From Candidatus Babelota bacterium (lineage in GTDB: Bacteria > Babelota > Babeliae > Babelales > Vermiphilaceae): 64,000 nt of DNA. Every line of letters begins with the position of its first letter. The stretch's first letter is position 1. The position numbers were made by a program. Where the stretch lies: NCBI GenBank assembly GCA_049325595.1, contig JBMOLF010000010.1:32001-96000 (forward strand), in the 5' to 3' direction. This document shows, piece by piece, positions 18,001 through 21,000 of this stretch.

Positions 18001-21000
18001 CTGCTTCTTATTATAAGCTTTTTATGTGCAGGATGGTTTGTTATCTACTACCATCCTTTACAATTAAAAGTGCATACTCGCACAGCTCATCAGCAACAAT
18101 TATTGCAAAAATATTGCACTACATTAAAACGACAACAAGCTGAATTGCTACCAGTTGTACCAGAGCTTGAAACAGCTACTATCCCCGAGCTTATTCAAGA
18201 AATTATAGAAATGGTTGACCAAAACAATTTAGCGCTCATTTCATGTGATTTACATAAAAAAAATAATCTCATTTATCATTGTAACTTGTCATATCACGGT
18301 TTAATTGAACAATCATATACGATGCTTAATAATCTTGAGCAAAAGAATATCAAAATTAAAAAAATTTCAATGAAAAATTCTGAATCTGGTAGTGCAATGC
18401 ACCGTCTGATCATAGAATTGCAACAAGCTTAATAAGCTTATTGTGTCAAAAAAAACCCTTCAACTTGAATAAGCTGAAGGGTTAGGGGGTGAACAATACA
18501 AAGAGGTATTGTTCGTTTAGGGATTTTTTTAACACGTAGTTCGTGGAGATCCTAACAACCAACTTTTTTATTGTCAAGTTTCTCACATGTTACATGTCTT
18601 ATTCTGTTTGTTGAAAAAAAATTGACGCAAAGGAGAATGAACAAGTCTGAGTTTTACTAATGAGCTGAGCATGCGCAAACCACCTTTAAAAAGCTTTAAT
18701 TTACTATCAGCTTGATCATGCCAAACAGTAGGAATCTCTTTAATCTTTGCCTTTTGTTTTTTGCATAAATAAAGCAGTTCTACATCAAATGCCCATTGCG
18801 TAACCGTAAATTTATCGATGATAGCCTGAATAACGGGTCGTTTAAAAATTTTAGCTCCACATTGAAAATCTGCATACCGTATGCCAAATAACATCCATGC
18901 CAGATTTTCATAAACCAGCTTGCTTCCCATTCGCTTTATAAAAGGTCGTGCTGGGCTTACGTGCGCACCCTTCATATATCTACTTGCAATGATACCATCG
19001 CACGATGAAATCTGCTCAATGAGCTGAAAAAAATATTCAGGTCGGGTAGCCATATCAGCATCGACAAATCCAATAAGATCATTTGTCCCCTGCAAAGCAT
19101 GTGAAAATCCTTGCGCTATAGCAAACCCTTTGCCTGCTTGTTCATAATTAAGCACGACAATTTGTTGGTGCTTTTGAGCAAATTGATGTGCAACCTCGAT
19201 GGTTTTATCAGAACAACCATTTAACACAATTATAAATTCATAATCATGTATTACTTGTTGTTCTTTTTTTTCGTGAAAAAATTGACAATAATTATCAACT
19301 GTTTTACCAAGTCGACGTTCTTCATTATGGGCTGGGATCACAATACTAATTTTCATGGCTACCTTTTATGCCCAATTTAGGCTTCAATATCAGCAAGTTG
19401 TTCTTCGTGGCATCCTTGCTTTATTATTTCTTCAATTTGCTCTAAAGTGGCTTTTTTTCGAGCTAAATAATATTTATATAAAATACCATCGTGTAAATTC
19501 TGGATTCCAGTGTAGCCAGCTTCTAAACTCCAGCGCAATATTTTGCCCCAAAATAATGCAAAGTAGATAATCATCACAATCTCATTTGGTTCTTCATGAA
19601 CTGAATAGAGATTATTGTTATGACGCACTACATGAAAAGATGATGTTGATCGATTGGTAGCTTTGTTGGCAGATTTTAGTATTGCCCAATGAGCTTGTTT
19701 AGGAAGAAAATAAGATCCGATTAAAGATACTAATGAACCGGTGCTTAAAGCAGCAAGATATTTTTTTTCGGTTTTATAATTAAAAAGCAAATTAGAAAGA
19801 TAACCAATGCCTGATATACTTAGCAAGCTAGCGCAAATTTTTGCTATTCCCTTGCTAATTAAAATGGGATGTTTTTTTATATCACTTGCTAATTGCTTAT
19901 TTATCGCATCTATTTCATCTTTGGTAAGTGATTCAAGATATTTTTTTTCATTACGATAATTAAAGCGAATTTTCTTTTCTCGAGTATTGTATCGATTGTC
20001 AAAACTCTCTGAAAAGCGTTCTGCGTCAAGACCTTCTTTGATTAATTCATCAATTTCAGGGCCAGCGTAACAGGCATTTCTTATTTTATCAAAAAATTGA
20101 AGCCAACTTCCTTGATAGGTTGCTTGAGTCATAGGTGTCATAAATAAGAGCAATAAAGCCTTACGAGGGCAATAGTTCATGTTGTAACCTTTATTAATTT
20201 TAAGTATGTTAGAAAATGAATACAGCCAATAATAAAATATCTTTGCTAAGTACTCAATATGAAACAGATTAAACATCATCAAATTCTTGAGACAGTTAAA
20301 CCTTATTTGCCCAATGCTCCTATTGTAGTTGAAGCTGGTGCATTTGATGGTGCTGATACTAAAAAAATGGCATTGTTGTGGCCTGAAGGCACCATTCATG
20401 CATTTGAACCCGTGCCCAAAAATTTTGAGCTGTTAAAAAATAATACTGTTGCGTATAAAAATATTTGCTGTTATCCACTCGCATTAAGTAACACTACCGG
20501 TTATGCAACTTTTTATTCAGCTATTAATCCTGCAAAACCAGATAAACCATGTCAGGCTGGCTCACTATTAGCGCCCAAAGAGCGATTGAGCCATTCGCCA
20601 ATGGTTTATCAAGAAACTATTCAGGTGCCGGCTATTACGCTTGATGATTGGGCTGAGAAAGAAGAAGTTAATCAAGTGGATTTTTTATGGCTTGATATGC
20701 AAGGGCATGAGTTATCGGTGATTAAAAGTTCTCCTGTTATCATGACTACCGTAAAAGCAATTTATACAGAGGTTCATTTTATAGAGGCTTATGAAGGCCA
20801 ATCTTCCTATCAAGAATTAAAAAATTATTTAGAATCTATTGGATTTACTATGGTAGCCCGTGATTTTACCGAGCCACCATCTTGGTTTTTTGGGAATGCA
20901 TTATTTGTACGTTTATAAGATTAATTTTTAAATCCACTATTAATCCGTTGAATTTTTTTACCATACATCATAACTAAAAGTCCTGGTAAAACCCACGTTA

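Follow-up and report, generated by a model that had tools for sequence, protein, structure and literature searches.

A previously undescribed small RNA gene in nearly all Dependentiae (Babelota) genomes and its possible pairing with G-run ribosome-binding sites

According to PMC4409812, the C-rich regions of the small RNA (sRNA) RsaE/RoxS pair with Shine-Dalgarno (SD) sequences rich in G and block initiation. Yfr1, described in PMC6778093 as near-universal in cyanobacteria, carries its motif single-stranded between two stem-loops. We analyzed a 64,000-nucleotide stretch of a Candidatus Babelota bacterium genome (the window; assembly GCA_049325595.1, contig JBMOLF010000010.1, positions 32,001 to 96,000), in which a conserved element with two hairpins is flanked by convergent ORFs (Table 1; all positions count from the first letter of the window). 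This element is a small RNA gene, undescribed so far, that is found in nearly all Dependentiae (Babelota) genomes. A literature search found no paper on regulatory RNAs in Dependentiae.

Like RsaE/RoxS as portrayed in PMC4409812, the RNA is short and combines C-rich unpaired stretches, a duplicated motif and a 3' terminator hairpin, with trans action here being proposed. The counterparts of the several C-rich unpaired regions of RsaE/RoxS are UCCCUAAAC and ACCCCCUAA, both unpaired and conserved, whose pairing with SD sequences we infer. RsaE/RoxS acts without Hfq, and Hfq was also not found here: the genome, which is 94.96% complete, gave no PF17209 match, and we therefore rejected an Hfq-dependent sRNA. 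In contrast to these likenesses, there is no match in sequence or structure, as a cmscan search of positions 17500-19500 at E<=10 returned no hit to RF01820, the Rfam accession of RsaE/RoxS (Bacillales). The phylum is also a different one, a single run of 5-8 C sits in the linker between two hairpins, and the promoter looks constitutive with no ResDE/Rex-type control visible.

The likeness to Yfr1 is one of kind and not of homology: a small RNA with a pyrimidine-rich motif held as a single strand between hairpins, present here in 143 of 151 genomes. The motif sequence differs, there is no Rfam Yfr1 match, and whereas Yfr1 has the complementary family Yfr2, no conserved G-rich partner was found here. 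The 16S anti-Shine-Dalgarno tail offers another comparison, since UUCACCCCCUAAC (the C-run plus preceding stem bases) agrees with AUCACCUCCUUUC at 9 of 13 letters, both follow a hairpin and both would pair with purine-rich SDs. The RNA differs from the tail in having CCCCC for CCUCC, which disfavors GGAGG and favors GGGGG, in replacing CA by CG in several families, and in lying outside the ribosome. CsrB/RsmZ and SD-mimic sponges share with it a proposed action at translation initiation via the SD/anti-SD code, but they expose GGA/SD-like purines and need CsrA. We rejected a sponge of this type because the transcribed strand is C-rich, without exposed GGA/SD purines, and no CsrA gene was found in the genome.

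Table 1. Features of the sRNA locus and its surroundings, in window coordinates.
Feature	Position	Strand	Remarks
M23 peptidase gene	16622-17911		same operon as the 165-aa ORF
Convergent 165-aa ORF	17935..18432	+	last gene of the operon with the M23 peptidase; stop codon 16 nt from the sRNA 3' end
Conserved element	18448-18542		contains the two hairpins
Hairpin P3, then U8	18448..18481	-	P3 18456-18481, CCCUUCAGCUU/AAGUUGAAGGG, invariant G.U; U8 18455-18448; predicted intrinsic terminator and RNA 3' end
Unpaired linker ACCCCCUAA	18482..18490	-	C-run of 5 here, 4-8 in relatives; proposed seed
Hairpin P2	18491..18514	-	9 bp, GAACAAUAC/GUAUUGUUC; variable 6-nt loop
Predicted 5' end and unpaired 5' region	18515..18542	-	5' end ~18542, from the -10 box; variable leader, A-tract, then motif (UCCCUAAAC, 18523-18515)
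Extended -10 box TGtTAGGAT	18549..18557	-	TG 18557-18556, hexamer 18554-18549; from promoter scan and alignment
-35 box TTGACA	18572..18577	-	promoter scan 10/12 matches, spacer 17; the 30-locus alignment keeps it, there read as TTGTCAAG (+ strand)
Glycosyltransferase gene, upstream and co-directional with the sRNA	18583..19356	-	stop codon abuts the sRNA -35 box

The survey's finding that a real conserved element lies here was borne out, and its sequence is as quoted there. Using a 110-nt query, blastn recovered the element in 54 of the 61 genomes from the family, and in 46 of the 50 good ones among them, at 78-92% identity, in one place per genome except for a second weak match in G052. At the level of the phylum, the covariance model R1 matched 143 of 151 sampled genomes (141 if only the 149 good ones are counted), with 17 of the 18 families represented and scores of 51.5-101 bits, two weak second matches aside. 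Records under the names Vermiphilus pyriformis and Dependentiae bacterium Noda2021 have the element too; Babela and Chromulinavorax are further members that can be cultivated. High identity amid divergent proteins, also claimed, was upheld by the M23 peptidase next to the element, which is 48-91% identical with a median of 61% (38 loci). No Rfam family matches the element, in agreement with the survey: no score exceeded 26 bits, where the gathering score is 64 (cmscan of 17500-19500, both strands, E<=10). Its description as a near-universal single-copy gene was right in that there is nearly one per genome, yet the RNA is not strictly universal in the phylum. Searches at E<=5 gave no homologue for G034, G042 and G145, and G041, G152, G154 and G126 yielded weak, divergent candidates only.

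Two other RNA classes were considered and rejected. The bacterial small SRP RNA (RF00169) has its copy away from this locus, at G000:C23:6728-6820 (53.4 bits; G000 is the genome studied here). 6S RNA is about 180 nt long and forms a long helix with a central bubble; the RNA described here is ~93 nt with two short hairpins, and RF00013 had no match in the genome, a model that detects 6S in only 5 of 14 control genomes.

With its ends predicted from sequence, the RNA extends over ~93 nt from ~18542 to ~18450 and consists of a 5' A-tract, UCCCUAAAC, a hairpin, ACCCCCUAA and the terminator. Of 29 phylum sequences representing 17 families, 28 have a TTGACA-N17-TGnTAnnnT promoter upstream of the RNA on the minus strand, with a -35 box of the TTGAC[AT] type at a plausible distance. 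By comparison, the whole 1.29-Mb genome has just 8 matches to the strict pattern TTGACA-N13-15-TGnTAnnnT on its two strands together (2.57 Mb). At the level of sequence, both the promoter and the Rho-independent terminator of an independent sRNA gene are present on the same strand. The leader is variable, with 18-81 nt from the -10 box to the core, and leads into the conserved 5' motif GUCCCUAAAY, which is kept in both alignments and lies in a region that is unpaired in the fold of 18449-18542. The linker C-run is invariant in both alignments and unpaired in folds, and a second CCCCCCUAA occurs inside the P2 loop of one relative (L074).

The claim of two covarying hairpins was confirmed by the alignment of 29 sequences from 17 families, where compensatory change affected 11 of 20 pairs and 30 cells, compared to 5.8 in shuffles, with none of 500 shuffles as high. 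All cells of P2 were paired (100%), with compensatory change in 8 of its 9 pairs, and 99.4% of P3 cells were paired, with compensatory change in 3 pairs; slid controls of the alignment paired at 33-50%. The stems are conserved in sequence more than pairing alone demands, and the hairpin loops are not conserved.

The strand of the RNA is marked by its wobble pairs. Reading the minus strand gave 45 G.U versus 1 A.C cells in 30 family sequences and 44 versus 0 in the 29 sequences from 17 families. Paired cells amounted to 99.7% on the minus strand versus 92% on the plus strand, where the 44-45 wobbles turn into A.C mismatches, and the fold z-score was -7.97 versus -4.03 (-6.14 for the full RNA). 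U8 follows a GC-rich hairpin on the minus strand only, which is also the only strand with a terminator call for the P3 hairpin, and the A-run is conserved on the plus side. Since promoter, terminator and G.U asymmetry all point to the minus strand, we place the RNA there, and we hold with high confidence that the gene lies on this strand and is independent.

This reverses the earlier plus-strand reading, whose quoted letters run antisense to the transcript. What the RNA exposes is C-rich and anti-SD-like, so it is no SD mimic, and the exposed SD mimic described in the survey is absent from it. Pairing with the 16S 3' end had also been claimed, but UCCCUAAAC and ACCCCCUAA cannot pair with GAUCACCUCCUUUC, the tail in this genome, and resemble it instead. 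What stands of the proposed tie to translation is that the conserved single strands are related to the SD/anti-SD code; the strand and the mechanism of SD decoy or titration do not.

We propose that transcription of this independent gene on the minus strand would start from a strong extended -10 promoter of the sigma-70 type and end at P3 with U8. The RNA would expose two C-rich stretches sharing CCCUAA, one in the 5' tail and one in the linker between the hairpins, where the run of 5-8 C is the most conserved unpaired feature. As a trans-acting riboregulator, the likeliest of the readings, it would use the C-run to pair with G-run Shine-Dalgarno sequences, in the manner of RsaE/RoxS and Yfr1. 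GGGGG pairs perfectly with CCCCC and only with wobble with the ribosomal CCUCC. On some mRNAs the RNA may then prevent 30S subunits from binding or compete with them, and ftsA, with its SD within the ftsQ-ftsA overlap, is the best conserved candidate target. We see the odds for this account as a whole as evenly balanced, and would put base pairing to G-rich ribosome-binding sites, taken by itself, at an even chance. One finding that speaks against base pairing is the 80-90% identity across the phylum, which is seldom seen in sRNAs that act in this way and could equally reflect binding to a protein.

To assess the candidate target, we counted uninterrupted runs of at least 4 G between -22 and -3 relative to the start. 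The ftsA SD had such a run in 46 of the 60 genomes that carry the RNA versus 2 of the 8 that lack it (Fisher p=0.006, with no correction for kinship), the 8 RNA-less genomes scored coming from about 6 lineages, and a run of at least 5 G in 36 of 59 genomes with the RNA. As controls, ftsZ from the same loci had a run of at least 4 G in 5 of 32 cases and of at least 5 G in 0 of 32, htpX orthologues had one of at least 4 G in 5 of 28, and other ORFs of the retrieved loci in 41 of 196. The G-run was absent from ftsA in 14 of the 60 genomes with the RNA, among them G055, the sister of RNA-less G034, and was retained in the RNA-less genomes G154 and G152; loss of the RNA and loss of the G-run coincide in only about 4 of 6 lineage cases. 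Pairing of ftsA with the RNA hardly extends beyond the G-run itself, and C-run length showed no correlation with ftsA G-run length (rho -0.13). In 18 of 24 loci an overlapping upstream ORF (ftsQ) has the G-run within its 3' end, where coding, or coupling of translation, might equally maintain the run. The G-run counts, which make up the case, leave ftsA as a possible but doubtful true target of the RNA.

Other searches for targets gave no clear lead. Ranking targets in the same genome by duplex energy produced no outstanding match, and ruvC was dropped as a target, having no G-rich leader in this genome. Counts of GGGGG-N4-10-ATG did not split genomes with the RNA from those without it, and their ratio to the reversed-pattern control was 1.1 in the genome studied here. 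An excess of signal peptides among the top target matches proved to be background (39% of G4-SD genes versus 34% of canonical-SD genes; 30% of the top 30 versus 28% of the rest). We rejected rRNA as a partner, since the best duplexes with the rRNA operon, at -12.7 and -20.0 kcal/mol, fell within or barely past those of 20 random 7.5-kb segments. A G-rich intergenic site at G000:C10:160640-160760 (GGGUUAGGGGGAAUUAGGGA) was likewise rejected as a partner or sponge, with only short A/T-rich matches in 8 of 60 relatives and fold z-scores of 0.39 and 0.16.

The strong conservation, and the fact that no strong extended mRNA complementarity was found in the RNA's own genome, would also fit a different mode of action, in which the same minus-strand RNA works through a protein. 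The CCCUAA repeat and the C-run would then be bound by a protein with affinity for single strands rich in C or for the tail of 16S rRNA, for instance an RRM, cold-shock or S1-like protein or one of the KH type (Era, KhpA/B), and the RNA would sequester or deliver that protein. Consistent with this, the 80-90% identity across the phylum includes the stems, CCCUAA occurs twice in unpaired regions, and a hairpin followed by UUCACCCCC resembles helix 45 followed by AUCACCUCC in 16S rRNA. However, about a third of families have CG in place of the CA that precedes the C-run, weakening the likeness to 16S, the loops of the hairpins vary, Hfq and CsrA were not found, and no candidate partner was identified by our searches. 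Two RRM proteins named in the survey as alternative partners did not co-occur with the RNA: among 61 family genomes, 47 had both, 7 the RNA only, 5 the RRM only and 2 neither, which rejects them as obligatory partners. We consider action through a protein rather unlikely.

In 60 of 67 loci the ORF downstream of the RNA is convergent to it, and the M23 operon takes this place in 39 of 67 loci from six families; the convergent 165-aa protein of the window has no Pfam match. Upstream, 46 of 67 loci have a same-strand ORF whose gene family differs between loci, and read-through from the glycosyltransferase gene into the sRNA is possible. The element might therefore be mainly a transcription-end module, a bidirectional terminator or 3' UTR of convergent genes without trans function, whose promoter yields a by-product transcript. 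This would suit the convergent junctions and the co-directional genes ending just upstream, as well as the convergent ORFs that end within the element in some loci and the weak terminator call on the plus strand formed by P2 and a T-rich tract. But sequence conservation over 17 families is not a feature of terminators, the C-rich stretches outside the stems stay invariant next to loops that vary, and the element has its own strong conserved promoter next to flanking genes that differ between families. Because the upstream genes differ between loci, the RNA appears independent of its neighbors, and with its own promoter and terminator it is not merely the conserved 3' UTR or terminator of a neighboring operon that the survey had allowed for; we judge a pure transcription-end role very unlikely. 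As a separate observation, the RNA gene is also kept beside the LytM/M23 peptidase operon, and in other bacteria LytM/M23-type factors take part in cell separation.

It is extremely improbable that the RNA lies on the plus strand and there imitates an SD through its exposed UAGGGGGUGA and UAGGGA, titrating either the 3' end of 16S rRNA or a protein that binds SDs, for although the plus strand also forms two hairpins and convergent operon transcripts may read into the element and carry the antisense sequence, all of the wobble cells become mismatches, the 30-locus alignment has no conserved promoter on that side, hairpin 1 lacks a U-run on the plus strand and CsrA was not found.

Returning to the minus-strand riboregulator, an extended version would make the RNA a free-standing mimic of the ribosomal anti-Shine-Dalgarno tail (a hairpin, then UCACCCCCC) that competes with 30S for G-run sites kept phylum-wide. 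The ftsQ-ftsA junction would be its ancestral target, and one RNA would gate cell division in obligate intracellular bacteria; we offer this as speculation that is unlikely to hold in full.

Dependentiae (TM6/Babelota), a phylum that is widespread and almost uncultured, consist of reduced bacteria that depend on hosts. With 80-90% identity and a presence in about 95% of the genomes sampled, this one RNA gene is on par with Yfr1 in cyanobacteria, and it marks a core function in regulation where searches for Hfq and CsrA found nothing. With the strand corrected, titration of ribosomes by an SD decoy is no longer open to the RNA, which would instead compete with ribosomes for mRNAs. The covariance model is ready for annotating the phylum, and the C-run and the ftsA G-run make a directly testable pair.

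The sRNA is very probably an independent gene encoded on the strand opposite to the plus strand given in the survey's finding, as indicated by four independent lines: wobble pairs, promoter, terminator U-run and fold energy. On the minus strand, the wobbles comprised 45 G.U and 1 A.C in a family alignment of 30 sequences, and 44 G.U and 0 A.C, including an invariant G.U in the second hairpin (P3), in an alignment of 29 sequences from 17 families. Because these wobble cells become A.C mismatches on the plus strand, pairing there was 92%, compared to 99.7% on the minus strand. The sole conserved flank in the 30-locus alignment, TTGTCAAG...ATCCTAACAA, lies to the right of the element and reads on the minus strand as TTGACA-N17-TGnTAGGAT. 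In 28 of 29 sequences across 17 families, a promoter of this TTGACA/TG type precedes the core by 18-81 nt, the 29th having its match at an implausible distance, and an independent promoter scanner made a minus-strand call at 18577 to 18549 with 10/12 matches and an upstream TG. The strict form TTGACA-N13-15-TGnTAnnnT occurs just 8 times on both strands of the window's own genome (G000). One of these sites precedes a tRNA-Gly gene, one the sRNA and six ORFs, several of which have strong Shine-Dalgarno sequences (SDs) and signal-peptide-like starts. Eight U residues follow the GC-rich P3 on the minus strand only, with the matching A-run conserved, and fold z-scores were -7.97 for the minus and -4.03 for the plus strand.

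From 5' to 3', the sRNA consists of a variable leader (a small hairpin in many relatives), an A-tract, GUCCCUAAAY, the 9-bp hairpin P2, a linker with consensus (A/G)C5-8(U/C)AA, the 11-bp P3 and the U-run; both loops are variable. The full fold (z -6.14) leaves the linker and the 5' 28 nt unpaired. The two covarying hairpins described in the survey held up: in the 17-family alignment, which was fitted to the covariance model and is biased toward the structure, 99.7% of cells paired (33-50% in slid controls) and 11 of 20 pairs showed compensatory change, with 30 such cells against 5.8 expected and 0/500 shuffles as high. Pairing was also 99.7% in the family alignment, made with MAFFT, which varies little. 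Family sequences are invariant over 30 nt, from the P2 3' arm through the P3 5' arm, with variation restricted to the opposite stem arms, where it is seen as G.U; across families, both stems covary. The P2 loop of one divergent member (L074) holds a second CCCCCCUAA.

Features at the sRNA locus (window coordinates)
Feature	Position	Strand	Remarks
sRNA	about 18542 to about 18450	minus	roughly 93 nt; ends inferred
165-aa ORF	17935-18432	plus	last gene after M23 peptidase gene, convergent on element
Family-2 glycosyltransferase gene	18583-19356	minus	other convergent ORF flanking element

The element sequence quoted in the survey is present in the window. Across 67 loci, the downstream neighbour of the sRNA is a convergent ORF in 60, ending a few nucleotides from the sRNA 3' end and in some loci within the sRNA. 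The terminator contains the end of this ORF in 14 of the 60 (L003, L004, L009, L011 and others), and GCUGAAGGGUUAGGGGGUGA, the antisense of the conserved core, has stop codons in three of three frames. In 39/67 loci, from six families, the sRNA has an M23 (LytM-type) peptidase operon as its convergent neighbour. The order of an M23 peptidase gene, then a small membrane protein gene (16622-18432 in the window), converging on the sRNA recurs in six families, a synteny that is deep given how rearranged such genomes are. The 165-aa protein belongs to no Pfam family, and blastp against ORFs from the remaining 66 loci gave no match at E<=1e-3. On the promoter side, a co-directional ORF terminates immediately upstream in 46/67 loci. 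This upstream gene varies by locus, encoding an ABC ATPase at 16, probably a glutamine synthetase at 12 and a glycosyltransferase in the window, so the sRNA is not tied to any single gene. Read-through into the region from either side is possible, and a weak plus-strand terminator, P2 followed by a T-rich tract, was called. A palindrome, AAGCTTAATAAGCTT (18420-18445), straddles the stop codon of the 165-aa ORF immediately before the A-run and forms a small hairpin in the plus-strand fold.

A 110-nt blastn query matched 54 of 61 same-family genomes (46/50 good ones) at 78-92% identity, in one place per genome except G052 (plus one weak extra match). The sRNA is far better kept than the adjacent protein, since flanking M23 peptidases are only 48-91% identical (median 61%, 38 loci). 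A minus-strand covariance model, R1, built from the 30 family sequences, matched 143 of 151 sampled phylum genomes, all of one order (141/149 good ones, 17/18 families), the same figures as the survey had obtained from a separately built model. The RNA that the survey called almost universal is near-universal and not strictly so, as no homologue turned up at E<=5 in G042, G145 or G034 (a single contig, 96% complete). G041 has a weak candidate only, in which CCUCC replaces the C-run; at L213:1455-1590 (R1 17.6 bits, E 0.17), a promoter-like site is followed by ACCUCCAUUU and a terminator with a P3-like stem, and this may be a divergent member bearing an exact CCUCC core. Another weak candidate, in G152, retains CCCUAACCC and a terminator. 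Outside the window, the minus strand of intergenic G000:C10:160640-160760 (L082) reads ...UCCCUAAUUCCCCCUAACCC..., with 11 letters identical to the sRNA linker plus one CCCUAA. This stretch showed no conservation in relatives and no unusual fold; the likeness may be due to chance or to a degenerate second copy.

The exposed stretches of the sRNA are C-rich. The linker plus last stem bases read UUCACCCCCUAAC and the G000 16S tail AUCACCUCCUUUC; the sRNA is thus similar to the anti-SD and incapable of pairing with it, which reverses the SD mimicry proposed in the survey, the transcribed strand being anti-SD-like. RsaE/RoxS has C-rich regions, one of them duplicated, whose pairing to G-rich SDs blocks initiation (PMC4409812), and Yfr1, near-universal in cyanobacteria, has a conserved single-stranded motif flanked by two stem-loops (PMC6778093). 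They are the two closest known kinds, the former for its C-rich stretches and the latter for its unpaired motif between two stem-loops and its near-universality. The C-run would pair perfectly with GGGGG but poorly with canonical GGAGG, where an A.C mismatch would remain, whereas the ribosome's CCUCC would need a wobble to pair with GGGGG; the sRNA would thus be expected to select G-run SDs. By crude gene calls, 68/1509 G000 leaders contain GGGG and 24/1509 GGGGG; the ruvC leader of G000 is not G-rich. As the most probable role, at about even chances, we propose that the sRNA is a C-rich riboregulator acting on G-run ribosome-binding sites.

The main alternative, a protein-binding role, seems rather unlikely. 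G000 encodes two RRM proteins, named in the survey as possible partners, and their occurrence does not track the sRNA across 61 family genomes (both in 47, sRNA only in 7, RRM only in 5, neither in 2); neither Hfq nor CsrA was found in G000 (95% complete). SRP RNA was rejected, as that of G000 sits on contig C23, and 6S RNA is unlike in size and fold. The survey's lack of an Rfam family was confirmed on both strands at E<=10, the best scores, about 26 bits where the gathering scores are 54-64, coming from alignments that rest on terminator-like hairpins.

For the putative riboregulator, ftsA and htpX, chosen among G000 genes with a G5 SD, were tested phylum-wide. A run of at least 4 G within -22..-3 was found in ftsA leaders of 46/60 sRNA-bearing genomes (at least 5 G in 36/59) and 2/8 sRNA-less ones (Fisher p 0.006, uncorrected for kinship; the G096 start call is unreliable). 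Among controls, the G-run occurred in 5/32 leaders of ftsZ, which follows ftsA directly in these loci (at least 5 G in 0/32), in 5/28 htpX orthologues, and in 41/196 further ORFs (200 aa or longer) from fetched loci, where the start-picking rule favours G-rich SDs. Fourteen sRNA-bearing genomes lack the ftsA G-run, including G055, sister of sRNA-less G034; G154 and G152 keep it without a clear sRNA, and by lineage the losses coincide in just about 4/6. In 18/24 loci the G-run falls inside the upstream ORF, at its overlapping end; G-run length does not correlate with that of the C-run, and sRNA-ftsA complementarity is scarcely longer than the G-run. We regard ftsA as a tentative target, a lead rather than a finding. 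At the ftsQ-ftsA junctions (L221-L250, L282-L286), the start of ftsA is usually overlapped by the ORF upstream of it (about 250 aa, ftsQ by position), whose stop falls between -7 and +20 and which encloses the G-run SD; ftsZ, just 3' of ftsA, has a canonical AAGGAG.

When 185,579 species genomes were scanned with a sequence pattern, at least 120 stretches matched. Among the matches listed, lineage-naming titles were Dependentiae, Babeliales, Babelota, TM6 or Vermiphilus, the exceptions being MAGs titled just 'bacterium', or Pseudomonadota/Epsilonproteobacteria, which we read as mislabelled. Many sRNA-bearing MAG records among these carry titles such as 'uncultured Pseudomonadota', 'Proteobacteria' or 'Epsilonproteobacteria bacterium'. 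No published account of the family was found in the literature searched. The sRNA represents a genuine small RNA family, so far undescribed and near-universal in the phylum, and as a Dependentiae-specific RNA it could be a quick marker for re-labelling such bins.
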